Virus record (IMG/VR): IMGVR_UViG_3300044614_000224
Location: 14,839-78,838 of that record
Reading direction: 5' to 3' (one strand)
DNA length: 64,000 nucleotides
Source of the DNA: a virus
Lineage: Duplodnaviria; Heunggongvirae; Uroviricota; Caudoviricetes
Every line of letters begins with the position of its first letter. Position 1 is the stretch's first letter. Both the position numbers and the translations under genes were made by a program. The notes beneath the pieces are model-generated. The model saw only the letters and a program-made list of their open reading frames with translations. It did not search any database and was not told where the DNA came from. Below are positions 36,877 through 62,495 of this stretch, in pieces.

Positions 36877-36877
36877 T

Positions 36878-37213
36878 CTATCTTCTGTTCTTAAGAAACT
36901 CTTCTGCAGCACCAGATAATTCCCCTTTACCTCTCACTTCCACCTTAGCCTCTTCAACACTTCTTAGCTTGTCTACCACCTCAATTAGAGCTAGGTAGTT
37001 CTTCATTGTCTCTTGTACAAACTTACCTTGTGCCTCGATAGATGCAATTACCATTGGTAACATGCCTCCCTTAGCTGTAGGTTTCCACTCAATCCTATCT
37101 TTTAATTCATGTAGTGGGTTTGCATCTACGTAAGCTTTCCATGATGTGAGTTGTGACTCAGCCCATTCAAGCTCTGTATTTATATATGTAGTTTTCTTAA
37201 TAGTTGTCGCCAT
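36878..37213 (-). CDS. small protein upstream of terL, possible small terminase subunit (111 aa)
   Basis: Position only; ATG at 37213-37211. Confidence 0.3.
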   Translation of the reverse strand: MATTIKKTTYINTELEWAESQLTSWKAYVDANPLHELKDRIEWKPTAKGGMLPMVIASIEAQGKFVQETMKNYLALIEVVDKLRSVEEAKVEVRGKGELSGAAEEFLKNRR

Positions 37214-41844: not shown

Positions 41845-42384
41845 ATGTTTATAGATTGCAAGCTCGTACTTAAATCATATGTACCTGAGAAATTAGAGAA
41901 GGGCATGTGGTTCGTAAGAGTTAAAACAGAAGTGATATATGGAGATAAACAAGAATATCTCTGTGTAACTCAATTAGATATAGTTCCTAGGGATATGGAA
42001 ACATATCTCACATTTAATGGCTATCCTGTTAAGCCATATCTTGTATATCCAATGATTAATCCTGATGATACAGAGGTGATAGCAGCCTATCCTGAACAGA
42101 TAGGTTGGTGGGATGAGGGAGAACATGTGGATGAACTAAGGGATATAACAGTGAAAGACATCAATAATATATTGGAGTGGGACAATTCAATGGTACAAAT
42201 AGAGGTGCTTGATGATGAGGAGGATGAAGAAGATGGTACACCAATTCCATTATTATATGATAACAAGGTGACTCTCAGAGATGTACATACAATAGATCAT
42301 AATGAAGATTGGGATGATGATGAAGATCATCTAGATGATGGAGATGATGATGTATGGGATCCTGAGGACCACAATACAGAATAA
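41845..42384 (+). CDS. highly acidic early protein, candidate DNA-mimic / anti-restriction protein (179 aa)
   Basis: The C-terminal half is dominated by D/E (DDEEDEEDG, DWDDDEDHLDDGDDDVWDPEDH). It is the first sizeable gene of the early unit after a terminator. Confidence 0.5.
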   Translation: MFIDCKLVLKSYVPEKLEKGMWFVRVKTEVIYGDKQEYLCVTQLDIVPRDMETYLTFNGYPVKPYLVYPMINPDDTEVIAAYPEQIGWWDEGEHVDELRDITVKDINNILEWDNSMVQIEVLDDEEDEEDGTPIPLLYDNKVTLRDVHTIDHNEDWDDDEDHLDDGDDDVWDPEDHNTE

Positions 42385-45010: not shown

Positions 45011-46963
45011 ATGAATATACTCATCTATGATATAGAAACCATGCAGGAGCTGTTTCTAATAGGTATATACAATCCTGATACACAGCAGTGGTATGAATTC
45101 CAGGTGAGTAGAAATCTTAACCAATTAGATGCATTCACTAGGTTTACAGAGGAACATGCTGATTACTATTGGGTTGGATATAACAATCTACGCTTCGATA
45201 GTCAGGTGGTTGAGTGGGTGTTACGTAATCATGGTGACTGGTATGATTTAAGTGCATTAGAAGTGTGTGCTAAAATAGCACAGAAAGCTGCTGATGTGAT
45301 ACATGATGCTAACTATGATGTATTTCCTGAGTATAGAGAAGAATGGCTCACCCTCAAACAAATAGACCTATTCAGAGTGAATCACTATGATAATAAGAAT
45401 CGTAGAGTTAGCTTGAAGAGGTTAGAGTTTGAGATGGATCTTCCAAACATTGAAGAGATGCCTATTCATCATACTAAAACTGATATGACTGATGAGGAAA
45501 TACAGCTCACTATTGACTATTGTCGTAATGATATATATGCTACATATGAATTCTATTTGGTAACCATTGGTCAGACAGACCATCCTTTGTACAAGGGTAA
45601 TAACCAAATAGAGCTCAGACAGGATATATACAATGAGTTTGGTATTCCTTGTTTAAACTATTCTGACAGTAAGATAGGTGATGAGATGATTAAGAAGTAT
45701 TACTGTCAAGAGAAGAATATGTCCTACAGTGATTTACCAAAGAAAGGATATTTCAGAAAGCAAGTGAGAGCCAAAGATTGTATTGCTCACTATGTGGATT
45801 TCCAGACACCAGAGCTAAAAGACTTTCTGAAGCATGTAAAGAAGCAGATATTCACACTCACTGATGAATTTAAAGAGTCATTAGAATTCTATGGCAACAC
45901 TTATACATTTGCCAAGGGTGGGCTACACACAGAAAACAAGCCCAAGATATTTGAGGCTGATGAAGATAACATCATAGTTGATTGGGACGTTAGTTCATAC
46001 TATCCAGCTATTATCATTAACAATGGTAAATATCCACAGCATTTGGGTAAAGAGTTTCTTAGAGGATACAAACAGATGTTTGAGAAACGATTGGAACTCA
46101 AGCCATTAGCTAAGAAGGATAAGAAGATTAAAGGTATTGTTGGTGCATTGAAGCTTGCTGTAAACTCTGTGTATGGTAAGAGTTCTGATATGCAATCATG
46201 GATCTATGATAGACAACTAACTATGTTCACCACTATTACAGGTGAGTTGAGCTTACTTATGCTTATTGAGGCATATGAATTAGCTGGCATACGTGTAATA
46301 TCTGCTAATACAGATGGAGTGACAATACTTGTAAAAAATGCAAGTTTTGATACTATGACTGCTATCAACAAGTGGTGGATGGACGTAACTCAGTATGAAT
46401 TAGAGCGTACTGATTATGCAAAGATTATATTCTCTACAGTAAATGACTATTTAGCAATTAAAACCGATGGAGAAATTAAGAAGAAGGGTGACTTCCTCAC
46501 TGATTTTGAGCTACACAAAAATAAGTCAGCTAGGATTGTACCTATTGCTCTCGAGCATTATTTTGTTAATGATGTGCCTGTGGCTGATACCATTCATAAT
46601 TGTACAAATATATATGACTTTTGTCTCAGACAAAAAGCAAGTAAAGACTTCCATTATGAAGGAATAGCCAATGGTAAGAAAACAGTGTACAATAAGCTAA
46701 TCAGGTATTATGTGTCTAATAAGGGTGAGAAGCTGTTAAAGGTGAAGAACCCTGAATGTCAGTCTAATGCTGCAGATGTATCTCAAGTGGAAGCAGGTGA
46801 TTGGGTGATGCATGTATGTAATCATCTACCACTAGATCATCCTCTGGATAACATCAATTATGCTTATTACATAGAACGTGCTGAACGTATTATCAGCAAA
46901 ATACAATTAGAAGGTAAAAAGAGAAAGGTGACAATCAATCCTAATCAATTAAGTTTATTCTAA
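45011..46963 (+). CDS. family-B DNA polymerase with 3'-5' proofreading exonuclease (650 aa)
   Basis: Exo I (IYDIET), Exo II (YNNLRFDSQ), Exo III (YCRNDIYATYEFY), motif A (DVSSYYPAII), motif B (KLAVNSVYGKSS) and motif C (SANTDGV) all appear in the correct order. Confidence 0.85.
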   Translation: MNILIYDIETMQELFLIGIYNPDTQQWYEFQVSRNLNQLDAFTRFTEEHADYYWVGYNNLRFDSQVVEWVLRNHGDWYDLSALEVCAKIAQKAADVIHDANYDVFPEYREEWLTLKQIDLFRVNHYDNKNRRVSLKRLEFEMDLPNIEEMPIHHTKTDMTDEEIQLTIDYCRNDIYATYEFYLVTIGQTDHPLYKGNNQIELRQDIYNEFGIPCLNYSDSKIGDEMIKKYYCQEKNMSYSDLPKKGYFRKQVRAKDCIAHYVDFQTPELKDFLKHVKKQIFTLTDEFKESLEFYGNTYTFAKGGLHTENKPKIFEADEDNIIVDWDVSSYYPAIIINNGKYPQHLGKEFLRGYKQMFEKRLELKPLAKKDKKIKGIVGALKLAVNSVYGKSSDMQSWIYDRQLTMFTTITGELSLLMLIEAYELAGIRVISANTDGVTILVKNASFDTMTAINKWWMDVTQYELERTDYAKIIFSTVNDYLAIKTDGEIKKKGDFLTDFELHKNKSARIVPIALEHYFVNDVPVADTIHNCTNIYDFCLRQKASKDFHYEGIANGKKTVYNKLIRYYVSNKGEKLLKVKNPECQSNAADVSQVEAGDWVMHVCNHLPLDHPLDNINYAYYIERAERIISKIQLEGKKRKVTINPNQLSLF

Positions 46964-48050: not shown

Positions 48051-48285
48051 AACTAAACATATGCCAGATATAACAATGTGCAAAGGTGGTCATTGTATGC
48101 TAAGACTTAGCTGCCACAGATATACAGCAAAAGCTGATGAATTAGCTCAATCGTTTTTTAGTGAACCTCCATATAAGATAAGCATGATGTTAGATGATGT
48201 TGAGAAATCATTAGGTGTCGTAACATTAAGTTGTGCTTATTTTTGGAACAATGCAGAAGAAAGAGATGAAAAACCTAAAGATTAA
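48031..48285 (+). CDS. hypothetical Cys/His-containing protein (84 aa)
   Basis: ORF containing CKGGHCMLRLSCHRY. Confidence 0.4.
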   Translation: MVGLQNKTKHMPDITMCKGGHCMLRLSCHRYTAKADELAQSFFSEPPYKISMMLDDVEKSLGVVTLSCAYFWNNAEERDEKPKD

Positions 48286-48466
48286 CGAAGATTTCGAAAG
48301 GGAATCTCTTAAAGATTTAGTATATTTGCAAGAGGAGAGCCATGAGCTTGATAAACAAATCCAAGAGGAGATAAATAAGTTTAGAAAGCCTGCAGCTATA
48401 TTTATTGTGGATACAGATAAAATCTTAGAGAGAGATGAAGTTAGACATAACGTACTTCCATTTTGA
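48266..48466 (+). CDS. hypothetical protein (about 66 aa); start trimmed to the internal ATG
   Basis: In frame with track ORF 48233-48466; MKNLKINEDF... Confidence 0.35.
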   Translation: MKNLKINEDFERESLKDLVYLQEESHELDKQIQEEINKFRKPAAIFIVDTDKILERDEVRHNVLPF

Positions 48467-49058: not shown

Positions 49059-49264
49059 CACCCAAAGAAAAGGCAGAAGAATTAGTATATAAGTATTATA
49101 CATTTGGTATTAATAATATAGCTTCTCCTTCTTATAGTTTACATGAATGTAAGCAACTTGCATTAATAGCAGTGGATGAGATATTAGACACCATAAAGTG
49201 GTGCATTGGTGATAGCCAAGTTGAATATTGGCAAGATGTTAAAAAAGAAATAGAACTACTATGA
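49055..49264 (+). CDS. hypothetical protein (69 aa)
   Basis: ORF; ATGA overlaps on both sides. Confidence 0.4.
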   Translation: MTPKEKAEELVYKYYTFGINNIASPSYSLHECKQLALIAVDEILDTIKWCIGDSQVEYWQDVKKEIELL

Positions 49265-50325
49265 GTTTTGAAGACTTAAAAAAACAGGTACAGGCAGGCT
49301 TAGAGGGTAGGAATGGTGGTATACCTATGGGTTTTGATAGACTTAATAGATATATTGGTATTAGAAAGTCCATATATACGCTTATAGGTGGTCTCACGGG
49401 TTCTGGTAAGACTAGCTTTATTGATGATGCATATGTGCTTAATCCATTTGATTGGTATATAAGCAAAGCAAATAAGACAAACATCAAGCTAAGGATTATA
49501 TACAGATCCATGGAGAGAAGTAGAACCTATAAGATGGCTAAATGGGTAGGTAGAAGAATATTCATCGATCATGGTGTAACTATCACAGTTAACAAACTGT
49601 TGGGCTGGAATGATAAAATGACCAAGGATGAACATGATCTATTTCTAATGTATGAAGACTATATAGGAGAGATGAGCGAAGTGATTACAATCATTGATGG
49701 TCCAGAGAATGCTGTAGGTATAGCCAAAGAGTTAAAGGCACATGCTTTACAGAATGGAACCATTGAGCAGGTGGATGAATACAATAAGAAGTATTTCCCC
49801 ACAAATGAGAATGAAATCACTATGGTTGTTATCGATCATATAGGCTTATTAAAAACTACACAAGCCCAGCCTACAAAGAAAGATGCTATTGATAAGATGA
49901 GTGATGAGCTCAGATATGCTAGAGACTTCTATGGATATAGTCCTGTTGTTGTTAGTCAGTTCAATAGATCTATTTCTAACATGGCAAGATTAAAGAGTGG
50001 TGATGTAGAACCACAACTAGAAGACTTTGCAGAGAGTTCAAGCACGCAGAATGATGCTGATGTTGTACTAGGATTGTTTGACCCAATGAGATATAAAGTG
50101 GCTGATCCATCAGGCTATGAATTAGATAAGCTGAAGGATAACTTTGGTGCCAAGTATTTTAGATCTCTCAGGCTAATTAAGAATAGCTATGGTGAAGATG
50201 ATGTTAGAATAGGCTTAGGCTTCTTAGGAAGCATTGGTATGTTCAAAGAACTGCCTAGAGTGAAAGACATTACAGAGGCGGATTACACAGCAGTGGTGAA
50301 TAAATCATTTTTCCTAAACAAATAA
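49261..50325 (+). CDS. DnaB-family (RecA-fold) replicative helicase, C-terminal domain only (354 aa)
   Basis: Walker A (GGLTGSGKTSF), Walker B (MVVIDHIGLL), H3-like SQFNRS. No N-terminal DnaB domain. Confidence 0.55.
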   Translation: MSFEDLKKQVQAGLEGRNGGIPMGFDRLNRYIGIRKSIYTLIGGLTGSGKTSFIDDAYVLNPFDWYISKANKTNIKLRIIYRSMERSRTYKMAKWVGRRIFIDHGVTITVNKLLGWNDKMTKDEHDLFLMYEDYIGEMSEVITIIDGPENAVGIAKELKAHALQNGTIEQVDEYNKKYFPTNENEITMVVIDHIGLLKTTQAQPTKKDAIDKMSDELRYARDFYGYSPVVVSQFNRSISNMARLKSGDVEPQLEDFAESSSTQNDADVVLGLFDPMRYKVADPSGYELDKLKDNFGAKYFRSLRLIKNSYGEDDVRIGLGFLGSIGMFKELPRVKDITEADYTAVVNKSFFLNK

Positions 50326-50327
50326 AC

Positions 50328-50528
50328 ATGAGTATAAAAACAAACGTATATAACACGCTACCAAGTAAAAAAGATCATTGGTGGCAGATTGTAGTATTGC
50401 CTACAGTTAGTATTATGAACAACATACAAAAATATGATCCATACGTGGCTGTCAATTTTGAATGGTTATTTTGGTCATTTACTACAATATTAAGCTATGG
50501 CAAAAAAGGAAATCTCTCTACGAGATAA
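50328..50528 (+). CDS. small hypothetical protein (66 aa); overlaps the start of the next gene
   Basis: ORF track only. Confidence 0.3.
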   Translation: MSIKTNVYNTLPSKKDHWWQIVVLPTVSIMNNIQKYDPYVAVNFEWLFWSFTTILSYGKKGNLSTR

Positions 50529-51585
50529 GAGGCAACAGGAGTTTGCTGAGGTGTTCCTAAAACATGGAGAGTTTGGTATTCTAAACTTATGTCCTAGATT
50601 TGGGAAGATCTATACAACTATCAATATATTAGAGAAACTAGACAAAGATATCAACATCCTGATAGCCTATCCAGATCTTAAGATTAAGGAGGCTTGGGAA
50701 GCTGATTTCAAGACTAGAAAATACAAGAATCCTCATATAACGTACACTACGCACCTATCTATTAAAAAGCACACAGGAGGTGTATTTGACCTAGTAATAC
50801 TAGATGAGATACATTTGTTGTCAGAAGCACAAATAGAGGCTGTAAAAGAGCTAAAATGCATAAGTGTGCTTGGTCTTACAGGAACATTAGCTAGTAGTAC
50901 AGAAAGGACCCTCAATGAGGAGCTTGGACTGAATGTATTAGCTACCTATCCAATAGAACAAGCTATTGCAGAAGGAGTTATTACAGACTATGAAATCACT
51001 GTGATAAAGGTTCCTTTGGATGATAAGCGTATTAACGATTATAAAGGGAAGAAGCGTACAGAGAAGAAACAATTTGATAGCTATGCCTGGGTGATTGACC
51101 AGCTAGAAAGACAAGGAAAAGCAACAATGTTCCTACGTCTAGCTAGAATGAGAATCATACAGAACAGTGTGGCTAAAATGGAGAAGACAAGAGAAATCTT
51201 AGCTAAATATAAGCAAGATAGGATCTTGGTATTTTGTGGTGTTACTAAAATAGCAGACACACTTGGTATTCCTTCCTATCACAGTAAATCTACAGAGAAA
51301 GAAATCTTTACAGATTTTGCTGCAGGTAAAGGGAATCATTTGGCTGTTGTTAAGATAGGTAACACAGGTGTAACTTACAAACCACTTAACAAGGTGATTA
51401 TCAATTACTTCGATAGTAATGCAGAAAACCTTGCTCAGAAGATTAATAGATGTATGGCTATGGAATATAACACTCCAGACAAGAAAGCCCATATATACAT
51501 CATATCTTCTAATGAAGAAGTGGAATTAAAATGGCTCAAGAAGGCTCTTGAGTTCTTTGACAAATCAAAAATTAAATACTTATGA
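50497..51585 (+). CDS. SF2 DExH-box helicase (362 aa)
   Basis: Motif I-like CPRFGKIYT, motif II LVILDEIHLL (DEIH), motif III-like GLTGTLASS. Confidence 0.5.
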   Translation: MAKKEISLRDKRQQEFAEVFLKHGEFGILNLCPRFGKIYTTINILEKLDKDINILIAYPDLKIKEAWEADFKTRKYKNPHITYTTHLSIKKHTGGVFDLVILDEIHLLSEAQIEAVKELKCISVLGLTGTLASSTERTLNEELGLNVLATYPIEQAIAEGVITDYEITVIKVPLDDKRINDYKGKKRTEKKQFDSYAWVIDQLERQGKATMFLRLARMRIIQNSVAKMEKTREILAKYKQDRILVFCGVTKIADTLGIPSYHSKSTEKEIFTDFAAGKGNHLAVVKIGNTGVTYKPLNKVIINYFDSNAENLAQKINRCMAMEYNTPDKKAHIYIISSNEEVELKWLKKALEFFDKSKIKYL

Positions 51586-51803: not shown

Positions 51804-52475
51804 ATGGCAAGCAAATTAATTGGTATTGTTGGTCCAACTGGTACAGGTAAATCAACATCTATCAAACACTTAGATCCAAAGGAAACGTACATCATCAATG
51901 TTGCTAAAAAGGAACTACCTTTTAAAGGAGCAGAGAAGCTGTACAATTCAGAAAACAAGAATTACAAAGAGGTAGATGATGCAATTGAAATCACTCGATT
52001 GTTAAAGACTATCTCTGAGAAAGCACCTCACATCAAGAACATCATCATTGAAGACTCTAATTACATTATGGGATTCAATATGATAGCAAAAGCTACAGAA
52101 ACTGGCTTTACTAAGTTTACACTTATGGCTAGAGATATGGTAGAGCTATTTAGAGAAGCAAGAAGATTGCGTGATGATTTAAAAGTGTTCTATTTCACAC
52201 ACCCAGAAACTATTGAAGATGGTGGTGAGATTATAGGATACAAAATCAAAACTGCAGGTAAATTGATTGATAATCAGATTGTCCTTGAAGGTTTACTAAC
52301 TGTGTGTCTATATACACATGTAGAAGATAGCAAGGATGGTTCTGCTAATTATCAGTTCTTAACAAATCGCTTTAGAAAGTATCCAGCTAAGAGCCCAGAT
52401 GGTATGTTTGCAGATATTAAAATCCCAAACAACTTACAGCTTGTAGTAGACACAATTGACGAATATTATAAATAA
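51804..52475 (+). CDS. P-loop ATPase, possibly a Sak4-like recombination ATPase (223 aa)
   Basis: Walker A (IVGPTGTGKSTS), Walker B-like (NIIIEDS). Its size and position directly upstream of an SSB-like gene fit the Sak4+SSB arrangement. Confidence 0.5.
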   Translation: MASKLIGIVGPTGTGKSTSIKHLDPKETYIINVAKKELPFKGAEKLYNSENKNYKEVDDAIEITRLLKTISEKAPHIKNIIIEDSNYIMGFNMIAKATETGFTKFTLMARDMVELFREARRLRDDLKVFYFTHPETIEDGGEIIGYKIKTAGKLIDNQIVLEGLLTVCLYTHVEDSKDGSANYQFLTNRFRKYPAKSPDGMFADIKIPNNLQLVVDTIDEYYK

Positions 52476-53368: not shown

Positions 53369-53422
53369 TTTGTCCCCTCCCCTCTATAAAAGCCCCTCAT
53401 CTGTAAAAAGGTGGGGGGTTTT
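53369..53422 (+). terminator. C-rich / G-rich hairpin between the SSB-like and primase genes, possible weak terminator
   Basis: cccctcccctc ... ggtggggggtttt; imperfect stem followed by a T-run. Confidence 0.25.
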
Positions 53423-53434
53423 AACTTTATATAT

Positions 53435-54433
53435 ATGATAAACGGAAAAAGAAAAACAAAGCTTACACCAGAGTCCGTACTAGACAAGATAACTGATTAT
53501 GATATATTTAGGTTCTATATGCCTGATAAGACATGGAAGCTCAACAGAGTGACCTTCTCTCCATTTAGAAATGAGAACAATCCTTCCTTTGTAATAGGGA
53601 ATAAAAGGGGCTTTATATCATTTATTGACTTTGCTGATACCAGTAAAAGAGGTGATTGTTTTGAGTTTGTTAAGCTCCTTCACAATCTATCTAGTATGAA
53701 TGATGTGTTAAAGCTTATAGACAGAGATTTTGGACTAGGAATAGTTACCAAGGGTACAGAGGAATACAAGAGAATTACAGCACAGTATAAACAACCTGAA
53801 GCTGTTAAGAGGTATTCTCTCATCCAGGTGGTAACAAAGAAGTTTACACAAGAGGAGTTAGCCTATTGGAATCAATATCATATAGATATAGAGGATCTAA
53901 AGAGTAATAACGTCTATTCTGTTAAGAAGGTGTATTTGAACAAGAGTTTGTTCTATACCAACGATCAGGAAATGAGGTTTGGTTATTTCTATGATGGACA
54001 TTGGAAGATTTATACACCGTTTGGAGATAAGAAGACTAAATGGTTACCTAATAATGTTCCTATCACCGCTATGGATGGTAAAGAGGACATAGCTAATTGC
54101 AAGGTGGCATTCATCAATAAGAGTAAGAAAGATTATATGGTTATGAAGAAGATATTTCCATGTAGCTGTGCTGTACAGAATGAAGGTGTTGGTTGTTTCT
54201 CTCCAGAGAACTTAGAATATCTTAAAGCTAATTCTGACAGACAAATCCTCAGCTTTGATAGCGATGTTACAGGTGTAACTAACTCACAACAGATTACCAA
54301 GCTATTTGATTTTGATTATGCTAATGTTCCTCGTAAGTATCTAACAGAAGGTATAAAGGACTGGGCTGATCTAGCAAAGGCTCATGGTATGGAAGCAATA
54401 GAATCTTATTTAAAACAAAAACACATTTTATGA
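53435..54433 (+). CDS. DnaG-like primase with a degenerate, zinc-ligand-free zinc-binding domain plus TOPRIM (about 332 aa)
   Basis: SPFRNENNPSF...FISFIDFADTSKRGD aligns to the DnaG zinc-binding domain CPFHNEKTPSF...FYHCFGCG with all four ligands replaced. TOPRIM-like NEG and FDSDVTG. The track ORF starts at GTG 53411; the ATG at 53435 is the likely start. Confidence 0.45.
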   Translation: MINGKRKTKLTPESVLDKITDYDIFRFYMPDKTWKLNRVTFSPFRNENNPSFVIGNKRGFISFIDFADTSKRGDCFEFVKLLHNLSSMNDVLKLIDRDFGLGIVTKGTEEYKRITAQYKQPEAVKRYSLIQVVTKKFTQEELAYWNQYHIDIEDLKSNNVYSVKKVYLNKSLFYTNDQEMRFGYFYDGHWKIYTPFGDKKTKWLPNNVPITAMDGKEDIANCKVAFINKSKKDYMVMKKIFPCSCAVQNEGVGCFSPENLEYLKANSDRQILSFDSDVTGVTNSQQITKLFDFDYANVPRKYLTEGIKDWADLAKAHGMEAIESYLKQKHIL

Positions 54434-54592
54434 CACTGCATGATTTAAAAGAAGCTATTAGAAACGAAATAGAATTTCTTGAGACAATGGAAGGAGATGA
54501 AATAGAGTGTATTGGTATTGAGAACCTAGAAGGTATATTATCACAATATTTTAACAAAGAAATCAAACTAACAGAAGAGTATGAAGACTGAG
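54431..54592 (+). CDS. possible 54-aa acidic ORF below the cutoff
   Basis: ATG overlapping the primase stop (ATGA); MTLHDLKEAIRNEIEFLETMEGDEIECIGIENLEGILSQYFNKEIKLTEEYED. Confidence 0.3.
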
Positions 54593-55351
54593 AACTACAA
54601 CACAACAAAAGAATTGATTCTTGCAGCAGATATTCCTGCACAGACAAGAACTTACAAACCAGTTAGCCACGGTCAATTGATTGATCTTACAATGGATGGT
54701 ATTCAGAAGGCTGGATTTGTATTAGATAAAGAAACATACACAGCTAGTACAAATGGTCAGATTGCTAATGGTAGATTTACTATCAAGAACGTAATGGATA
54801 GTGAGATGCAATTAGAGATTGGCTGGCAGAATAGCTACAACAAGCAACTTACATTAAAGTTTGCCCTAGGTACACGCATTATGATTTGTCAGAATGGTTG
54901 TGTATCAGGTGATTATGGTGCATTTAAGAAAAAACACGTTGGTGAAATACAATCATTTACACCAAATGCTATTAGTGAATACATCAAGGCTGCAGGAGAA
55001 AGCTTTAGAACTATTCAGTTCCAGAGAGATCAAATGAAGCAAGTGGAAGTTACTAAGCGTACAAAAGCTGAATTGATTGGTAGAATGATGATTGAAGAGC
55101 AGTTTATTACATCTACACAATTAAACATCATTACCAGAGAATTAACCAGCCCTACACATGATTATGGTGCACCTGATAGCTTATGGGAGTTGTACAACTA
55201 CACAACATTTGCTATGAAGGAAACACATCCTGCAAACTGGATGAGTAGTCACATTAAAGCACATTCATTCTTTGTAGATGCTTCAGGACTTCATACACCA
55301 AAAGCTGAGGTGCCTGCTATTATACAATTAGAACAATTAGAATTATTTTAA
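54581..55351 (+). CDS. hypothetical protein (256 aa)
   Basis: ORF. Confidence 0.5.
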   Translation: MKTENYNTTKELILAADIPAQTRTYKPVSHGQLIDLTMDGIQKAGFVLDKETYTASTNGQIANGRFTIKNVMDSEMQLEIGWQNSYNKQLTLKFALGTRIMICQNGCVSGDYGAFKKKHVGEIQSFTPNAISEYIKAAGESFRTIQFQRDQMKQVEVTKRTKAELIGRMMIEEQFITSTQLNIITRELTSPTHDYGAPDSLWELYNYTTFAMKETHPANWMSSHIKAHSFFVDASGLHTPKAEVPAIIQLEQLELF

Positions 55352-55352
55352 C

Positions 55353-56069
55353 ATGAATTGGAATAAGTTTGAATCACAATTTCACCCATCATGGCATAGA
55401 CTTATGCAACCCTTTATTGAAAGTGAAGCTTGTGACAACATCTATAAATTCCTAAAATCAGAGAGTCAGAGGGGCAAGAAGATTGCTCCTCTTTCTCCTA
55501 ATGTTTATAGATGCTTTTTAGAGACTTCACTAGATGACCTAAAGATGGTTATGGTGGGTATGTGTCCCTACCACACATTAAAGAATGGTAGTCCTATAGC
55601 AGAAGGTTTACTAATGGGCTGTTCTACAACAGGTATATTACAACCTTCTCTAGCAAAGTTCTATGATGGAATAGAAAAAGAGTTGTATCAGGGATTAAAC
55701 CTCACTATACTAAAGAATCCAGATGTTACCTATTTGGCTAAACAAGGAGTTCTTATGTATAACGCAGCTTTAACCACTGAAATCAACAAAGCAGGTTCAC
55801 ATATCGACATCTGGGAACCTTTTACTAAGTATCTATTTGAAGAGGTGCTATCCTATACAGGAGTGCCTATTCTGTTCTTAGGGAAAGATGCTTCCAAGTA
55901 TGAAAGATATGTACCACCGTTTAGTTGGTCTTTCACTGTAAGTCATCCAGCCAGTGCTTCTTACAAGCAAACTGATTGGGATACAGAAGGTGTATTCACC
56001 AAGCTAAACAAGATACTAAAAGAAAACAATAATACAGAAATCGATTGGCTAGAAAAAGTGCCATTCTAA
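55353..56069 (+). CDS. family-1 uracil-DNA glycosylase homologue with non-canonical active-site residues (238 aa)
   Basis: Aligns along its whole length to E. coli/human UNG: SWHRLM, KQGVLMYNAALT, VSHPASASY, IDWLEKVP. The GQDPYH motif reads GMCPYH, so the catalytic Asp is Cys. HPSPLS reads HPASAS, so the intercalating Leu is Ala. Confidence 0.75.
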   Translation: MNWNKFESQFHPSWHRLMQPFIESEACDNIYKFLKSESQRGKKIAPLSPNVYRCFLETSLDDLKMVMVGMCPYHTLKNGSPIAEGLLMGCSTTGILQPSLAKFYDGIEKELYQGLNLTILKNPDVTYLAKQGVLMYNAALTTEINKAGSHIDIWEPFTKYLFEEVLSYTGVPILFLGKDASKYERYVPPFSWSFTVSHPASASYKQTDWDTEGVFTKLNKILKENNNTEIDWLEKVPF

Positions 56070-56079
56070 AACTAAAATT

Positions 56080-56379
56080 ATGGAAGAATTACAAGTGTAT
56101 GTACAAAACAATAGAGATGGAGAGTTAGATTATGATTATGATCTTATAATGGGAGGTGCTGTAGACACATTGAAATACTCAAATCATCCAGATTGGCAGG
56201 TTGGAGGAGAAACAGCATTAAAGTTAACAGACGATGGTAATGGTATAAAGTTCAAATTTCCTGATAAGAAGGTAATAGAACTAGAATATAATGAAGCACG
56301 TGAAATGCTTGTTATGTTAATGATGCACATGGATGAAAAAATAGAAATCAGAAAATCAGAACTTATTAAAACTATTTAA
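56080..56379 (+). CDS. hypothetical protein (99 aa)
   Basis: ORF. Confidence 0.45.
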   Translation: MEELQVYVQNNRDGELDYDYDLIMGGAVDTLKYSNHPDWQVGGETALKLTDDGNGIKFKFPDKKVIELEYNEAREMLVMLMMHMDEKIEIRKSELIKTI

Positions 56380-56381
56380 TT

Positions 56382-56747
56382 ATGTACAAAGTTAGATTTG
56401 GAGAAACAATTGAAAAGGGAGACCTCATTGCTGTTGCTAATGGTAATGATTTCTCATTGGGTATTTATTATGGAAGAGGAATAGGAGGAACTGTTCAGTA
56501 TTACATGCCTAATAGCGTTAGATATGCTATGGAACGTTTTAATGTAAGAATGGCAGAATTAACTGCTGAAGGACAACCTACAGAACCTCTTAAGTTAAAT
56601 AACTTTTGGAAATGTTATGTTAACACACCAAGAGACACACGAATTATGAAATTAAACAGAGAAAACATTACAAGTCCAAAAGACATAGAAGAAGTTATGA
56701 TAGCAAAAGAAGCACTAAAAAACTTTAACATCGACGTAAAATACTAA
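56382..56747 (+). CDS. hypothetical protein (121 aa)
   Basis: ORF. Confidence 0.45.
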   Translation: MYKVRFGETIEKGDLIAVANGNDFSLGIYYGRGIGGTVQYYMPNSVRYAMERFNVRMAELTAEGQPTEPLKLNNFWKCYVNTPRDTRIMKLNRENITSPKDIEEVMIAKEALKNFNIDVKY

Positions 56748-56749
56748 TC

Positions 56750-59065
56750 ATGATACTAGAAAAACAGACAGAAGCAACTATCCTACAAGAAGGAGAATCA
56801 CAAGAATCAATTGGAATGTCATTAGACCTGGACTCAGCTCAGGTGCTAATGCAAATGTTAAGTAAGAATTTATATTCAGATGCAATAGGTTCCACTATTC
56901 GTGAGTGTGCCTCTAATGCATTAGACAGTCACAGAAGAGCAGGTATTGATAAACCAATCATCGTTAGCCTCAATAGGAATAACCATGATAACTATGAATT
57001 CTCTGTAGAGGATTTTGGTATTGGTCTAGATGCAGATGATGTAGTTAATATCATCAGCAAATATGGTAAGAGTACAAAGCGTAATAGTAATACAGAATTA
57101 GGCATGATGGGTCTTGGTTTTAAGGCCCCACTAGCATACACATCTACCTTCTATTTTACTGCAAGGAAAAATGGAATGGAAAGAAAATACATGATGTATG
57201 AGGGAGAAGAAGTGAATTCAATCGATTTACTTCATGAGACTCCCACAGATCAGCCAAACGGTGTTAAGATAACAATACCAGTTAACTATTACGATAGACA
57301 TGATTTTGTACGTAAGATTAAAGAGCAACTAGCTTATTTTGAGAACGTGTATTTCAATGTACTAGATGGTGAGGTGAGCAATGATTTCACTATCCATAGA
57401 TCAGAACACTATCAAGCTTCTAGCTTATCCAGAGATAGTTGGTTACACATTTGTTTAGATAATGTGTATTATCCATTGGATTTCACTAGATTAGGTATTG
57501 ATAGAATAAGCATTCCTGTAGGTTTAAGATTTAGTCTTACAGATGGTTTATTCCCTACACCAAACAGAGAATCCATTAGATATACCAAGGAAGCAAAAGA
57601 TATCATCCTAGCTAAGATTAGTAAGATGGTTGATCATTTTATTACCAAATACAATGAAACTGTTGCTGATACTGATGATTTCATGGCTGTATTGAGATAC
57701 CATGCTACAAACAGAAGATATGTAGATGTTCCTGGTAAGAATACTAACTTTGATCTCACTGATGTAGTTAAACATGGTACTGTTCTAATCGCTTCTCCTA
57801 AGGTAAGCAGCCTAAAGAAGCTTGACTTACAAAAACTTGTCAGAAACAAGGAATACATCCTTGGTGAGTATGATAAGAAGTTTGAGCTTTACAATGGTAG
57901 AATGTCTCAGGTGAAGAGCTATTGGAGAAGTGGTGTTGATGTTATAAACAGAAACGATGAACCACACTATTTCTATTCTGAGAAGATTAGTGGTGCTATG
58001 AAGGATTATATTAAGAGTATAGCTCCAAAGAGCAGACATGCATATTTCATTAGAAAGGTGAAGACATTTAAACTGGGTAGTCTTACAAAGATGAATGATT
58101 ATGATACTTATATGAAACTTCTTAGCTTAGATGACTATCCAAGAGATCAATGGAGAGAGCTTATTGCAGAGTTTCAAGCTGTGTTAGCTTCTCTTACAAA
58201 GACATTCATCAACCTTGATGAGATAGTAATACCACAAGCTTTCCTAGATTCTAGGAAGAAGCAAAAGGGAATCACTGTTTCTGTTGGTGGAACAAAAGTG
58301 AGACGTATTAAGTTGGAAGGTGAGGTGATTGGTAGATATGCTGTAGAGCTAGAGAGATATGTAGATGGTAAGAATTCTAAACTGGTTAGCAAGATTTATA
58401 GTCTCGCTGAAATGCATAAGTATAACAAGCTTGTTATTTATGGTTCCCAGGCAGATATCTCTACTATGGACAAACTATATGCATCAGTTAATAAGAATAA
58501 GGTGGAGCTAGCTGTATTCTCTGAGAGAGAACTTAAGACACTATCTACTATTAACGTACACAATCTAATCCCTTTAAGCAAGTTTATGGAAGGTAAAAAC
58601 AAACCATTCAAGAGAATTGTAACAGCCTATCTAATCCAAAAGTTACACAACAACTTCAGTAGATCGTTTATTAGAAAAGAGAAAATTGGTCTCATCTCTA
58701 CAGATTTGTATGAAAAGATGAAAAGACTAAATGATTACAAGATTGAACATCACTGTGGTGGTAATGACACAATCTATAATTCTATGCTAGAGGTAGCCCA
58801 AACACACAACTTATTTGATATGGAGATATATCATGAGTATGTAGAAGTGAAGAACCTTCTAGAAAGATTACCATTCATCGAAGCTATGTCTGATAAAATA
58901 CAGAGCTATGATAATGATAACTCTCCAATAATCAGTGCATTCCGTGATCTATTCAAGTATCATGGACATAGAATTGACTGGAAACACTACAATATTCGTA
59001 TCAATGAAGAGGTTGTAGAGGAGTTAACAGAGAATTCTGTTGAAGAGTTAGTAGAGAATATTTAA
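56750..59065 (+). CDS. Hsp90/HtpG-like GHKL (Bergerat-fold) ATPase with a long uncharacterised C-terminal region (771 aa)
   Basis: N-box ExxxNAxD (RECASNALD), preceded by an Hsp90-like helix (QVLMQMLSKNLYSDAIGSTIRE, compare [20 protein letters not shown]). G1 box VEDFGIGL. GxSxK (YGKSTK). G2 box GMMGLGFKA. Confidence 0.7.
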   Translation: MILEKQTEATILQEGESQESIGMSLDLDSAQVLMQMLSKNLYSDAIGSTIRECASNALDSHRRAGIDKPIIVSLNRNNHDNYEFSVEDFGIGLDADDVVNIISKYGKSTKRNSNTELGMMGLGFKAPLAYTSTFYFTARKNGMERKYMMYEGEEVNSIDLLHETPTDQPNGVKITIPVNYYDRHDFVRKIKEQLAYFENVYFNVLDGEVSNDFTIHRSEHYQASSLSRDSWLHICLDNVYYPLDFTRLGIDRISIPVGLRFSLTDGLFPTPNRESIRYTKEAKDIILAKISKMVDHFITKYNETVADTDDFMAVLRYHATNRRYVDVPGKNTNFDLTDVVKHGTVLIASPKVSSLKKLDLQKLVRNKEYILGEYDKKFELYNGRMSQVKSYWRSGVDVINRNDEPHYFYSEKISGAMKDYIKSIAPKSRHAYFIRKVKTFKLGSLTKMNDYDTYMKLLSLDDYPRDQWRELIAEFQAVLASLTKTFINLDEIVIPQAFLDSRKKQKGITVSVGGTKVRRIKLEGEVIGRYAVELERYVDGKNSKLVSKIYSLAEMHKYNKLVIYGSQADISTMDKLYASVNKNKVELAVFSERELKTLSTINVHNLIPLSKFMEGKNKPFKRIVTAYLIQKLHNNFSRSFIRKEKIGLISTDLYEKMKRLNDYKIEHHCGGNDTIYNSMLEVAQTHNLFDMEIYHEYVEVKNLLERLPFIEAMSDKIQSYDNDNSPIISAFRDLFKYHGHRIDWKHYNIRINEEVVEELTENSVEELVENI

Positions 59066-59207: not shown

Positions 59208-60776
59208 ATGGGACTATTCAGTTTAAGCTGGTTCAAGAGCCAGAAACAAAAGCAGTTAGATGAATTACAACATGAGATTGAAGTTAAAAAATTAGAGAAG
59301 ACACTAGAAAGACTAGATGAAAAAGAGAAACCTTCTACTTACACAATAGGGATTAGTAATCCATGGGTACCTACTACAGCAAGTGTTGTTAAACCTTATT
59401 CTAACATTAAAATTGTGAATGATGTGCTTACAGTGGTACTTAACGATGGTTCTATCATCACTAAGTCTAAAGCTACAGCAGAAGACTTCAACAATGCTAG
59501 AGAGTGTAAGACAGAAGCTTGTTTATTGGCTCTTGTAGGTTCTCCAGATATACTAAAAGAGAAGCAGGAAGCACAGGCTAAATATGAGAAAGCTAAGGCT
59601 ATTCAGAAAGGTGCTGAGTATCTAGCTAAGTTTGATGATTTTGAGATGAAAGACGGTAGTCTTTATATCAAGGGAATCAACAGAAGCATCCCACCTTTGA
59701 TGGTAGATGAGTTCTTAAAGATTATTGGTAATTACAGTTACAACTCTATGGACAATGTAACAGATAGAGAAATAGATGAGGTGAATGAACTTATACAAGA
59801 AGACGAAGAGTATCAATCTCTTAAGCGTTTCTTTATGTGGTGTTGCTTAAATCCTAGAGCTGAGGTGGCTGACAAGCTATATAACTTCTTGAAGAAGAAT
59901 AGCTTCCGCATCACCAAGCAGGGATTCTTTGTAGCATTACGTAACGTTGTAACATTACATGGATCTACAGAACTGGTACAATTCATCAGCAATGCTTACA
60001 ACAAGACTAAAGCTGTATGGAAGAAGAACCCATCTGACTATTTAGTGTTCTTAAAGGACGGTGAATACAGAATGGTTGCTAAGTCTATATTTGAAGAACT
60101 AGAGCCATGCACATATTGTGATGAGAATGGAAATGTTCCTTGTGAGGATGATGACTATGATGATAGCTGTGAATGTCCAGAATGTTATGGTTCTGGTACA
60201 GTGTACAAACACTGTGAAGAGCAATATGGTGAATTGATTGGTAACTTAACAGAACTATATCTTGATTTGCCTAATAGAGCAGAGAATAGATTTACAGATG
60301 CTCACACAAAGACATTTGACATCAGAATTGGTAGACCAGTGAACATGCCTATGGAGCAGTGTAGATGGAATACTGATGATTGTGGTGCTGAAGGCTTACA
60401 CTTCACATCTGATGAGATTCATTATGTAGGTTGTGGTGATACATCTGTGCTTGTACTTATCAATCCAATGAAGGTTGTAGGTATTGGTGAGTCTAAAGGT
60501 AGATGCTATGAGTATTTACCAATCATGACTGTTCCTCGTGAAGAAGCAACAGAAATCTTACATGATCTAGACTTTGATACAATGGAGCTTGATGAGAGCT
60601 ATGCAATTCGCGAATTGGAAAATTTAGGTACAAAAGCTAGAGAAGGTTTTATTGCAGAGGCTAAGAAGTATGAGTTCAATCTCCCTGCTTTATCTGCTGT
60701 AGAAGTACTTAAGATTGTTAAGAGTCTTGATGAAATAAGACAAGAAATCTCTAAGAGAATCGTAAATATTGATTAA
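59208..60776 (+). CDS. coiled-coil plus Cys-rich zinc-ribbon protein (522 aa)
   Basis: N-terminal heptad-like region, then CTYCDENGNVPC...CECPEC...HC. Preceded by a 140-bp AT-rich gap containing a palindrome. Confidence 0.55.
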   Translation: MGLFSLSWFKSQKQKQLDELQHEIEVKKLEKTLERLDEKEKPSTYTIGISNPWVPTTASVVKPYSNIKIVNDVLTVVLNDGSIITKSKATAEDFNNARECKTEACLLALVGSPDILKEKQEAQAKYEKAKAIQKGAEYLAKFDDFEMKDGSLYIKGINRSIPPLMVDEFLKIIGNYSYNSMDNVTDREIDEVNELIQEDEEYQSLKRFFMWCCLNPRAEVADKLYNFLKKNSFRITKQGFFVALRNVVTLHGSTELVQFISNAYNKTKAVWKKNPSDYLVFLKDGEYRMVAKSIFEELEPCTYCDENGNVPCEDDDYDDSCECPECYGSGTVYKHCEEQYGELIGNLTELYLDLPNRAENRFTDAHTKTFDIRIGRPVNMPMEQCRWNTDDCGAEGLHFTSDEIHYVGCGDTSVLVLINPMKVVGIGESKGRCYEYLPIMTVPREEATEILHDLDFDTMELDESYAIRELENLGTKAREGFIAEAKKYEFNLPALSAVEVLKIVKSLDEIRQEISKRIVNID

Positions 60777-60821: not shown

Positions 60822-61223
60822 ATGAAAAAGAACGCAACAAAGAGAAGAGCGAAGATACCTAGAGCTAAAAGTCCAAAGATGAGAAACGCTGGTACTATGA
60901 CAGAATCAGCTTTCTGGAGCTTCATTAGAAGTGCTTTGAGACAGAAGTCTAGATGGTGGAAACCTATTACAGAATGCAAGATGAAAGCTCGTAGGGCATA
61001 TAAAGGTCCCAGTAAGAGACAAAAGTTTGAATATCAATGCAATAGCTGTAAAGCATGGTTTCCAGAGAAACAAATTAACGTAGATCACATTAAGCCTGCA
61101 GGTAGTTTAAACTGTAAAGAGGACTTAGCAGGATTTGTAGAGCGTCTGTTCTGTGAACTAGATAATCTACAGGTGTTATGTGAATCATGTCATGATGTAA
61201 AAACTAAATTAGAGAAAAAATGA
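60822..61223 (+). CDS. HNH endonuclease, likely a homing endonuclease (133 aa)
   Basis: VDHIKP...DNLQVLCESCH gives the H-N-H motif with flanking Cys pairs (CNSC...CESC). Confidence 0.7.
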   Translation: MKKNATKRRAKIPRAKSPKMRNAGTMTESAFWSFIRSALRQKSRWWKPITECKMKARRAYKGPSKRQKFEYQCNSCKAWFPEKQINVDHIKPAGSLNCKEDLAGFVERLFCELDNLQVLCESCHDVKTKLEKK

Positions 61224-61489
61224 GTGACTTAGAGATAACAATCAATAAAGAACCGTCGTTCACAGAGATATGGCATGAGGGATATATTACGTATAACTCA
61301 GAGAAGCACTATTTCTGGTTAATCCACCCACAGAATGTAGATGATAAAGGAGACCCTTATGAACTAGAGGTTAGATGGTTCTTTCAGAGGGTACCAAGAG
61401 AAGTGAGGGCAATGCACCCTTACATTATAGAATCTTTTAAACAAACACTAAATGATACAAGGACCAAACAGAACAGAAGCAGCTTATAG
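61220..61489 (+). CDS. hypothetical protein (89 aa); overlaps the next ORF
   Basis: ORF with ATGA overlap to the HNH gene. Confidence 0.3.
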   Translation: MSDLEITINKEPSFTEIWHEGYITYNSEKHYFWLIHPQNVDDKGDPYELEVRWFFQRVPREVRAMHPYIIESFKQTLNDTRTKQNRSSL

Positions 61490-62495
61490 GGCTGTAGCAA
61501 TGGACAGTTCTTCAAGCTTGAAGGACTTCTCTGTGGACAGAAAGAAATACCACAAGAAGTATGTCCTAAATGAGAAGGTGGAGGATAAAGACACAGCAGC
61601 ATCAGTTATTGGTAGACTGGTAGAGACACAACTTATGGAACCAGAACTCTTTGATGAGAGGTTCTATATGTCAACTGTTATTAGTGCACCAACCAATCTT
61701 ATGCTAGAATTTGTAGAAGCATTGTATAGACATACAGCTGCAGCTACAAATGAAGATGGTGTAGTTACAAGAGAGATGGAAGACATCATGAAAGATGCAT
61801 ATGTAGATTCTGGATTCAAGATTAAGATTGATGCTGTTCTTGCTAAATTCATAGGATCTGATGCAGAAATCTATTACAAAGAAATCCGTGAGGTGAGAAG
61901 CAAGGGCCTCACCGTTGTTACCACACAGGATATAACTAATGCAGAGAAGATTGTAGAAGAGCTTAAGACTAATGATTTTACAGCACCAATTGTAAACCTA
62001 GTTAATAGTGCACGCTACAATGTATATAATCAGCTCCAGGTGGAAGGATATGTTGTATTTGGACACATGTTCAAGAGCATGATGGATAAGGTGATTGTTG
62101 ACCATACAGAGAAGACAATCCAGGTGTACGATCTTAAATGTACGTGGTCTGTAGAAAACTTCTATGAAGAGTATTATCTCTATCGTAGAGCTTATATACA
62201 GGGCTATTTATATTTCTATGCAGCAAAGCACATGTTTGATGAGCTAGTGGCTGTAGGATATGAGATATTACCTCCTAGATTTATTGTATGTGACAGTACA
62301 AACTATGCATGTCCATTAGTATTTACCATGGATGATAAGTCATTCCAAGATGCTGAACAAGGATTTGAACACAAGGGTAGAAAGTATCCTGGTGTTAAGA
62401 GTCTTATCACTGACCTTAAATGGGCTATCAAGAATGATAAGTGGAACATTTCAAGAGAGAATTATTTAAATAACGGGTTAGTAAAATTAGGTTAA
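61452..62495 (+). CDS. RecB/Cas4-like PD-(D/E)xK nuclease candidate (347 aa)
   Basis: KVIVD...VYDLK gives D...DxK; it is followed by a QxxxY motif (IQGYLY). The start may instead be the ATG at 61500 (MDSSSS). Confidence 0.4.
   Translation: MIQGPNRTEAAYRAVAMDSSSSLKDFSVDRKKYHKKYVLNEKVEDKDTAASVIGRLVETQLMEPELFDERFYMSTVISAPTNLMLEFVEALYRHTAAATNEDGVVTREMEDIMKDAYVDSGFKIKIDAVLAKFIGSDAEIYYKEIREVRSKGLTVVTTQDITNAEKIVEELKTNDFTAPIVNLVNSARYNVYNQLQVEGYVVFGHMFKSMMDKVIVDHTEKTIQVYDLKCTWSVENFYEEYYLYRRAYIQGYLYFYAAKHMFDELVAVGYEILPPRFIVCDSTNYACPLVFTMDDKSFQDAEQGFEHKGRKYPGVKSLITDLKWAIKNDKWNISRENYLNNGLVKLG

Follow-up and report, generated by a model that had tools for sequence, protein, structure and literature searches.

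A phage UNG homologue with cysteine at the catalytic aspartate position: a probable uracil reader at the replication fork

UNG, the family-1 uracil-DNA glycosylase (UDG), ranks among the most conserved enzymes of DNA repair, and its catalytic aspartate is treated as an invariant that defines the family. A gene in a 64,000-nucleotide stretch of tailed-phage DNA (IMG/VR record IMGVR_UViG_3300044614_000224, positions 14,839 to 78,838; the whole stretch is called the window below) raises the question of what such a protein does when this residue is exchanged. The gene encodes a UNG-like protein, the query of the comparisons below, in which a cysteine, Cys71, occupies the aspartate position and the chain ends in an acidic-x-Pro-Phe tail. 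Taken together, its features indicate that the protein is probably a fork-tethered, weakened or non-cutting reader of uracil and not a standard repair enzyme.

Cysteine in the catalytic loop of a UNG homologue

A phmmer search of the PDB sequences returned 57 uracil-DNA glycosylase matches, headed by 9pyv (E = 6.4e-17) and including the E. coli enzyme 2eug (E = 1.8e-14, query residues 13–237). The matches span bacterial, human, herpesvirus, mimivirus and poxvirus enzymes, nearly always annotated plainly as ‘uracil-DNA glycosylase’. In the phmmer alignments, GMCPYH stands opposite GQDPYH and HPASAS opposite HPSPLS, both motifs being free of gaps. MAFFT gives the register C71 = D64, H74 = H67, M88 = F77, N137 = N123, H198 = H187 and A202 = L191 (query = E. 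coli); the E. coli Ung sequence used in these alignments agrees with the 2eug alignment. An AlphaFold2 model built on 30 close homologues reached a predicted local distance difference test score (pLDDT) of 84.5 and a predicted template modelling score (pTM) of 0.85. When the model was compared with the PDB by Foldseek, the top 50 matches were all UNG, with template modelling (TM) scores of 0.63–0.82, and its top matches in BFVD were viral UNGs. Since three independent alignments and the fold model agree, the alignment register is not shifted. By sequence and predicted fold, the protein is a full-length homologue or derivative of family-1 UNG. An earlier reading of this stretch, made without database searches (the sequence-only reading), had claimed UNG homology along the whole length and had named a shifted manual alignment as a way in which it might be wrong; the homology is borne out, and the manual alignment was sound.

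Curated profiles nevertheless place the protein outside the canonical enzymes. The Pfam UDG profile (PF03167) scores 20.3 bits, under its cut-off of 24.3, and the NCBIfam ung equivalogs score 75–117 bits, under cut-offs of 143–237 (best score 117.3 bits against a cut-off of 162; TIGR00628 88.9 against 185.75). Because it fails these thresholds and has neither the catalytic Asp nor the stacking Phe, the protein is not filed as a UNG equivalog. The profile of PHROG 12143, a phage UNG-like family listed as of ‘unknown function’, is matched over its whole length (E = 6.9e-32, residues 9–232 of 238), and the gene sits in a phage replication module.

The family-1 hallmark GQDPYH is defined as the water-activating motif (PMC5538708) and contains the catalytic Asp, D145 in the human enzyme. 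In the query, Cys stands in place of this Asp and Met in place of the Gln before it, while Pro, Tyr and His are kept (Table 1). The identical protein occurs on 19 contigs (JGI, ENA and NCBI), and 1292 homologues have intact open reading frames (ORFs); the motif is conserved across 51–97% identity, with synonymous codon changes. Among the best 120 of these 1292 matches (70–97% identity), 118 carry GMCPYH and two carry GMAPYH. A set from IMG/VR comprised 64 relatives at 46–79% identity, namely 62 members of the clade and two Asp-bearing outliers. Residue 71 is Cys in 57 of them (codons TGT and TGC), Ala in five and Asp in two; Pro72, Tyr73, Asn137, His150, His198 and Pro199 are each found in all 64, and His74 in 62. 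The two outliers, which are the nearest Asp-bearing relatives (L068, CQDPYF; L070, CQDPYA), are without a His three residues downstream of position 71 (+3). A search seeded with Cys-bearing proteins outside the query clade added 85 new proteins, 81 of which combine Cys with the +3 His; these 81 use three types of minor-groove loop, HPASA[SA]Y, HP[SA]FAAR and HPAYAAR. IMG/VR searches seeded with other Cys clusters returned nothing (P0200) or only the query clade (P0152). The replacement of Asp by Cys, first proposed in the sequence-only reading, is thus seen in all alignments, and the alignment of homologues which that reading had recommended extends it to the whole clade. Judged from these sequences, Cys at the Asp position is neither a sequencing error nor a one-off mutation.

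The five Ala71 variants within the clade (L026, L036, L042, L054 and L065; codons GCT, GCC and GCG) have Cys-bearing proteins as nearest neighbours, at 59–84% identity. All five retain PYHT, Met88, Asn137, His150 and His198, and three retain the C-terminal tail. The exchange of Cys for Ala has therefore occurred on four or more occasions, and the site did not collapse. Ala-His variants were also found elsewhere in the family, and the thiol of Cys71 is probably not essential. Cys27, Cys54 and Cys90 were considered as disulfide or metal-binding partners of Cys71 and rejected: none of the three varies together with residue 71, and Cys90 occurs throughout the family.

The wider phage family was sampled by a profile-free search of 1.84 billion representatives at 50% identity, which gave 5634 relatives at E ≤ 0.001; family counts refer to the best 150 of these, which are 30–63% identical to the query (74% for two fragments). 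Position 71 is Asp in 57, Cys in 25, Ser in 23, Glu in 18, Gly in 6, Ala in 4 and Asn in 4, with other residues in the remainder. By this sequence count, most of the examined representatives of the phage UNG-like family are without the Asp. Pro72 is kept in 142, Tyr73 in 143, Pro199 in 133, Asn137 in 141 of 151 and His198 in 122 of 151. Residue 71 also varies together with the +3 residue. Cys71 is followed by His at +3 in 22 of 25 cases and by Pro in none, and Ser71 by His in 10 of 23 and by Pro in 2; with Asp71, His is present in 3 of 57 and Pro in 39. The positions that best separate the Cys/Ser/Ala-plus-His type from the Asp type are 71, 74, 75 and 70, followed by 138 and 136, which flank Asn137. 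Because the separating positions cluster in the loop, G-[LM]-[CS]-P-Y-H-T versus G-Q-D-P-Y-P-x represents coordinated remodelling and not random decay. The co-varying His74 and Thr75 had escaped the sequence-only reading, as had the Phe-to-Met exchange, the Pro-Phe tail and the widespread loss of Asp in the phage family. No description of Asp-less family-1 UDGs in phages, of a [CS]-P-Y-H-T loop or of a Pro-Phe tail was found in literature searches, and public sources label these proteins plain ‘uracil-DNA glycosylase’.

The uracil pocket and the C-terminal tail

The uracil-binding motif is present as VLMYN (UNG LLLN) with Asn137, and Tyr73 (human Tyr147) is in place. The stacking Phe is not: GLLMG replaces GLAFS, with Met in 58 of the 64 IMG/VR relatives, and across the family this position is Phe in 73, Met in 39 and Leu in 33. 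Of the backbone-compression loops, LQPSL retains one Pro and Ser99 of the UNG sequence PPPPS, and the Gly-Ser loop is Gly177-Lys178. Their conservation shows the fold and the uracil pocket (Pro72-Tyr73, Asn137 and His198-Pro199) to be under strict purifying selection. Residue 84, in the loop that follows the catalytic motif, aligns with the His of the UNG motif AHGLAFS; it is Asp in 118 of 151 family members and Glu here, whatever residue 71, and could add an acidic group near the active site.

In the minor-groove loop, the leaving-group His is kept as His198 (human His268), and Ala202 takes the place of the intercalating Leu (human Leu272). Position 202 is Ala in 93 of 151 family members, including Asp-bearing GQDPYP proteins, and Leu is never among the commonest residues listed there. 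Active UNGs without this Leu have also been described, with Phe in B. subtilis, Arg in vaccinia virus and Tyr in mimivirus (PMC5538708). The Leu-to-Ala exchange, which the sequence-only reading had set beside that of the Asp, is therefore real but not special; as a family trait common to Asp-bearing members, it is uninformative on lost function. Two residues downstream, position 204 is Tyr in 60 and Arg in 42 of the representatives, and this conserved residue, Y204 here, may act as the wedge.

The family motif at the extreme C-terminus is acidic-x-Pro-Phe, occasionally Pro-Trp plus a few residues, and it comes after the last conserved Trp with a linker of 5–45 residues. Endings of the Pro-Phe type were found in 94 of the 120 close homologues, 57 of the 64 IMG/VR relatives and 77 of 136 complete diverse representatives; the cultured Steigviridae UDGs do not have them, nor does a group of GQDPYP proteins whose chain stops with the conserved Trp. 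The tail is present in 19 of 55 proteins (35%) with Asp, Asn and His all in place, in 41 of 60 (68%) that are Asp-less with Asn and His present, and in 18 of 22 (82%) where Asn and/or His are lost as well. Its frequency thus rises with active-site degeneration (chi-square p = 4.6e-5, kinship ignored). The last subgroup, which is also without Asn and/or the loop His (P0130, P0155, P0156, P0160, P0171, P0177, P0178, P0188, P0197, P0199, P0220 and others), retains UNG-like length, and from their sequences these tail-bearing, pocket-degenerate proteins are almost certainly non-enzymatic UNG-fold proteins.

[quoted passage not shown] The E. coli tip, MDFDDDIPF, is likened to the tail by motif only. 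Ung is one of the partners of this tip. In bacteria, the acidic tip of SSB recruits at least 17 partner proteins (PMC7145534). The tail is described here as a putative docking-type motif. A second Pro-Phe C-terminus in the window belongs to a 71-residue ORF that ends ...NVLPF, and the ending x-L-P-F is common to all 21 of its relatives; it may compete for the same docking site or serve as an adaptor to it.

In comparison with E. coli Ung and human UNG, which share its fold over the whole length at TM scores of 0.7–0.8, the query therefore shows Asp to Cys, the preceding Gln to Met, the stacking Phe to Met, Ser to Lys in the Gly-Ser loop, HPSPLS to HPASAS, a four-residue insertion after the catalytic loop and the extra C-terminal Pro-Phe tail.

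Proposed attenuated excision and its alternatives

The reading preferred here, with a probability of about 0.45, is that the protein, a member of the replication module tethered by its tail, recognises uracil and excises it weakly with the help of His. The protein would still flip and recognise uracil, not a 5-substituted base, since Tyr73 and Asn137 exclude thymine and cytosine in UNG. His198 would stabilise the leaving uracil, the positioning of the water would be taken over by His74 (human His148), and the outcome would be a slow, attenuated glycosylase. The acidic-x-Pro-Phe tail would dock the protein on a fork partner, as the SSB tip does, and what free UNG achieves by its very high turnover would here be achieved by a high local concentration or a long stay on uracil. 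A role for His74 is supported by its retention in most Cys-type members and by the usual Pro at this position when Asp is present. The +3 His is dispensable with Asp present, as mimivirus UNG has GQDPYP (PMC5538708), and in human UNG the water is activated by Asp145, which His148 may assist (PMC8730318). The Ala variants fit a need for a small uncharged residue beside a functional His74. An Asp-less site need not be inactive: UDG families 2, 3 and 5 (MUG/TDG, SMUG1 and UDGb) have Asn or Ala in motif 1, yet excise uracil slowly via leaving-group activation. They are other families by sequence and motifs, and the analogy is functional only. The protein may thus be likened to an Asp-less slow UDG or to a replisome-integrated viral UNG, such as poxvirus D4 or the herpesvirus UNGs.

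Several observations weigh against this reading. Little activity is left in the human UNG mutants D145E and H268L (PMC8730318), and Cys could therefore equally mean a near-dead enzyme. The tail is commoner in degenerate sites, which points to a core function independent of catalysis. Residues 71–90 are the least confident part of the model (pLDDT 62–68). Finally, the neighbour-joining tree of 136 representatives is star-like and the counts of Cys–His coupling ignore kinship, so that the number of independent Cys origins is uncertain and the counts are not phylogenetically independent. A Fitch parsimony count of Asp-to-Cys changes (up to 11) was set aside as not trustworthy on such a tree.

A catalytically dead protein, that is, a uracil-DNA or general DNA-binding scaffold recruited as a replisome component via its Pro-Phe tail in the manner of poxvirus D4/E4, is the main rival, a less likely but serious contender. 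The pocket would then serve for recognition only, e.g., for stalling at or marking template uracil without creating abasic sites in a single-stranded template. Such a scaffold would account for the presence of Asp in only 57 of 146 representatives, the rising gradient of tail frequency up to the members without Asn or His, the repeated tolerance of Cys to Ala and the location of the gene in the replication module. The essential role of poxvirus D4/E4 as a processivity subunit is independent of glycosylase activity. Human D145E is strongly impaired (PMC8730318), and herpesvirus and poxvirus UNGs are described as structural elements of the replisome (PMC5934625; bioRxiv 10.1101/2025.03.26.645540). 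Yet His198, His74, Asn137 and His150 are invariant or nearly so in the clade, which is more than binding alone needs. Uracil sensors made in the laboratory from Asp/His double mutants still bind uracil. Moreover, the specific retention of His74 on loss of Asp looks compensatory for chemistry. Selection beyond a scaffold is indicated because the leaving-group His and the +3 His would otherwise drift, as they do in the pocket-degenerate subgroup.

The viral parallels themselves are partial. The similarity of poxvirus D4/E4 to the query is weak and covers residues 131–234 (E ~0.002–0.02), and the comparison is an analogy, with orthology not demonstrated. Poxvirus D4 keeps the catalytic Asp, is an active enzyme and is tethered via A20, and it is not known to use a C-terminal Pro-Phe tail for this; the intercalating Leu is Arg in vaccinia UNG, as noted above. 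Mimivirus UNG has GQDPYP in common with the Asp-type phage relatives and Tyr for the intercalating Leu (PMC5538708). In this enzyme, both Asp and the Phe that stacks on uracil are kept, and a long extension is found at the N-terminus instead of a tail at the C-terminus. The enzyme shows that a +3 Pro and the loss of Leu are compatible with an annotated active-site architecture.

Recognition of a different base is improbable. In this case, the protein would be a glycosylase or reader of a modified pyrimidine, such as 5-hydroxymethyluracil or a hypermodified thymine, of the phage or of a competitor, and the changes Asp to Cys and Phe to Met would retune the pocket. The prevalence of Met at the stacking position among the IMG/VR relatives, the four-residue insertion after the catalytic loop and the differences between Cys-type and Asp-type proteins at positions 136 and 138 would suit such a change. 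However, Tyr73 and Asn137 are invariant, and in UNG the former keeps out 5-substituted pyrimidines and the latter reads the face of the uracil; limited scans of the 64-kb window gave no base-modification genes, and neither the UNG-like protein nor three neighbours matched a PADLOC defence family. The sequence-only reading had suggested binding of uracil or a modified base without efficient excision, or different chemistry; this was a fair statement of the possibilities, of which the modified base is now disfavoured on account of the two invariant residues.

Slightly more improbable still is covalent chemistry. Here, a Cys71 thiolate/His74 imidazolium pair would attack C1' after departure of the uracil to give a thioglycosyl-enzyme intermediate, which would end in retaining turnover or in a DNA-protein crosslink capping the abasic site in the single-stranded template at the fork. 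The protein, held at the fork by its Pro-Phe tail, would then be a UNG-based analogue of UdgX or HMCES/YedK. In UNG, the residue aligned with this Cys faces both C1' and the catalytic water. The Cys is strongly associated with the +3 His, and the non-acidic residues that most often replace Asp are Cys and Ser, each of them a potential nucleophile. Against this, Ala has taken the place of Cys in the clade on at least four independent occasions while the other active-site residues were retained, which weighs against an obligatory Cys nucleophile, and no UNG-family precedent is known for a nucleophile at this position. HMCES forms a covalent adduct with abasic-site DNA, and UdgX uses a His from another loop. 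UdgX, described as a uracil protein forming a covalent DNA adduct (PMC10776899), is family-4-like and HMCES has a different fold, whereas the query belongs to family 1 by whole-length homology.

An artefact (shifted alignment, sequencing error or decaying pseudogene), to which only the scores under the Pfam and NCBIfam cut-offs would point, is practically negligible given the agreement of three alignments with the fold model, the identical protein on 19 contigs, the 1292 intact homologues, and the conservation of the motif through synonymous codon changes.

A phage lineage known from metagenomes only, large and abundant (hundreds of clusters at 90% identity), has swapped the Asp of UNG for Cys with the pocket preserved. 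Together with the docking-type tail, this suggests that phages have repeatedly made of UNG, a fast repair enzyme that acts freely, a uracil reader tethered to the fork or a factor for slow excision, a conversion that would parallel the poxvirus and herpesvirus UNGs. If true, routine ‘uracil-DNA glycosylase’ annotations would need correcting, and the family would be a natural source of UNG scaffolds that bind uracil with low turnover, of use in uracil sensing or in tools for base editing. It would also give a handle on how crAss-related replisomes assemble on host factors, as the polymerase itself carries a beta-clamp-binding motif.

Phage lineage and replication module

Table 1. Coordinates of the UNG-like gene, its sequence features and other genes in the window.
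Feature	Position	Strand	Remarks
UNG-fold (family-1 UDG-like) protein	55353..56069	+	ORF from ATG to TAA, 238 residues
Remodelled water-activating loop G69-M-C71-P-Y73-H74-T75	55557..55577	+	From alignments; UNG G-Q-D-P-Y-H-G
GMCPYH, residues 69–74	55557–55574	+	
Cys71 codon	55563–55565	+	TGT
Post-catalytic loop LKNGSPIAEG	55578..55607	+	From alignment; 4 residues longer than in E. coli UNG; holds acidic residue 84
Residue 84	55602–55604	+	Glu
Met88	55614..55616	+	From alignment; uracil-stacking Phe position (E. coli F77, human F158)
Asn137	55761..55763	+	From alignment; uracil-recognition Asn kept (E. coli N123, human N204)
Minor-groove loop H198-P-A-S-A202-S-Y204	55944..55964	+	Leaving-group His kept, Leu position Ala, Tyr204 conserved
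HPASAS, residues 198–203	55944–55961	+	
Tail L-E-K-V-P-F-COOH, putative docking motif	56049..56066	+	Protein ends ...IDWLEKVPF-COOH
Major capsid protein	28762–30315	-	
Terminase	34849–36912	-	
179-residue ORF	41845–42384	+	No family match
DNA polymerase, 650 residues	45011–46963	+	PHROG 1252, E 1e-145; no Pfam match
Polymerase C-terminal motif	46946–46960	+	
71-residue ORF	48251–48466	+	
DnaB-like helicase	49261–50325	+	
Helicase	50497–51585	+	
Sak4-like ATPase	51804–52475	+	
290-residue protein, candidate phage SSB	52495–53367	+	Directly after the Sak4-like gene
Primase	53411–54433	+	
DUF932 protein	54581–55351	+	Pfam DUF932, 30.7 bits; 1-nucleotide gap to the UNG-like gene
Two small ORFs	56080–56747	+	
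rIIA-like (HATPase)	56750–59065	+	
rIIB-like	59208–60776	+	
HNH	60822–61223	+	
PD-(D/E)XK-type exonuclease	61452–62495	+	

No near-identical DNA was found among GenBank phages, and cultured phages hold no homologue of the UNG-like protein above 32% identity. For the terminase, identity is 40% with Leptolyngbya phage Lbo-JY46 and 32% with Cellulophaga phi4:1, and the matches to crAss-like phages are weaker; for the major capsid protein, only one of 50,697 GenBank phage records gave a match, again that of Lbo-JY46 (26% identity). From these two proteins, the window is assigned to an uncultured, poorly sampled lineage of the extended crAss-like assemblage. The UDGs of cultured crAss-like phages (Steigviridae cr111_1, DAC15 and Kehishuvirus tikkala; Cellulophaga phi14:2) are 28–32% identical to the query; they likewise belong to phage replication or nucleotide metabolism and, like the query, have an HPA-type minor-groove loop without Leu. 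The Steigviridae enzymes, however, keep the Asp (GQDPYP) and carry Pro at +3, the loop HPAY[YF]AR and no Pro-Phe tail, and Cys is thus not a general crAss trait. The phi14:2 protein has GKEPY and has lost the loop His. The gene neighbours of these UDGs differ from those of the query, the upstream gene not being DUF932.

The replication module on the + strand comprises the polymerase, DnaB-like helicase, helicase and Sak4-like ATPase genes, the gene of the 290-residue protein, the primase, DUF932 and UNG-like genes, the two small ORFs, the rIIA-like and rIIB-like genes, HNH and the exonuclease gene (Table 1). The neighbourhood of the UNG-like gene is kept in relatives down to ~57% identity. No second, canonical UDG was found within the 64-kb window of the ~110-kb genome, and a search of the window for dUTPase with E. 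coli Dut as the probe, a weak test, returned nothing. ThyX/ThyA motif matches in the window lie on the non-coding strand and were rejected as spurious.

Short C-terminal motifs are also found on other proteins of the module. The C-terminus of the polymerase, ...NPNQLSLF-COOH, fits exactly the bacterial consensus QL[S/D]LF for binding to the beta clamp (PMC12309361). All 32 of its relatives in the loci compared end in Q[LIMT]x[LM][FW] with no or one extra residue, which suggests that this polymerase relies on the sliding clamp of the host for processivity. An assignment of this divergent polymerase as PolA was rejected, as the NCBIfam and PDB matches point weakly to family B. The DUF932 protein ends ...EQLELF, and many of its relatives end in the clamp-binding-like sequences QLELF, QLSIF, QLEMF or QLNLF. 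Its gene adjoins the UNG-like gene in most, not all, loci of the clade. It was discarded as an obligatory partner: it is absent from several Cys-clade loci and is not homologous to the genes upstream of the Steigviridae and phi14:2 UDGs. For the 290-residue protein, searches of Pfam, PHROG, NCBIfam and PDB gave no match. Its C-terminus is the acidic tail ...EEDDSDF, and in nearly all of 70 relatives a Tyr or Phe likewise closes an acidic stretch, as in DGDDY or DDSDF. This tail looks like that of an SSB in the style of T7 gp2.5, which makes the protein a candidate cognate SSB for the Sak4-like ATPase. Judging by these endings, the phage appears to wire its replisome through short C-terminal docking peptides, with the UNG-like protein among their bearers.

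Among the relatives, the rIIA-like gene of L009 (11112–14413) appears to be split into parts of 124 and 621 residues around an ORF for a LAGLIDADG endonuclease. The module contains further LAGLIDADG ORFs, in L006 between the primase and DUF932 genes (6621–7409) and in L009 upstream of the helicase gene. These ORFs are mobile endonuclease insertions. In the window itself, the 179-residue ORF ends in a long, highly acidic stretch, ...DDEDHLDDGDDDVWDPEDHNTE, and could encode a DNA mimic or another interaction protein of the tail type.

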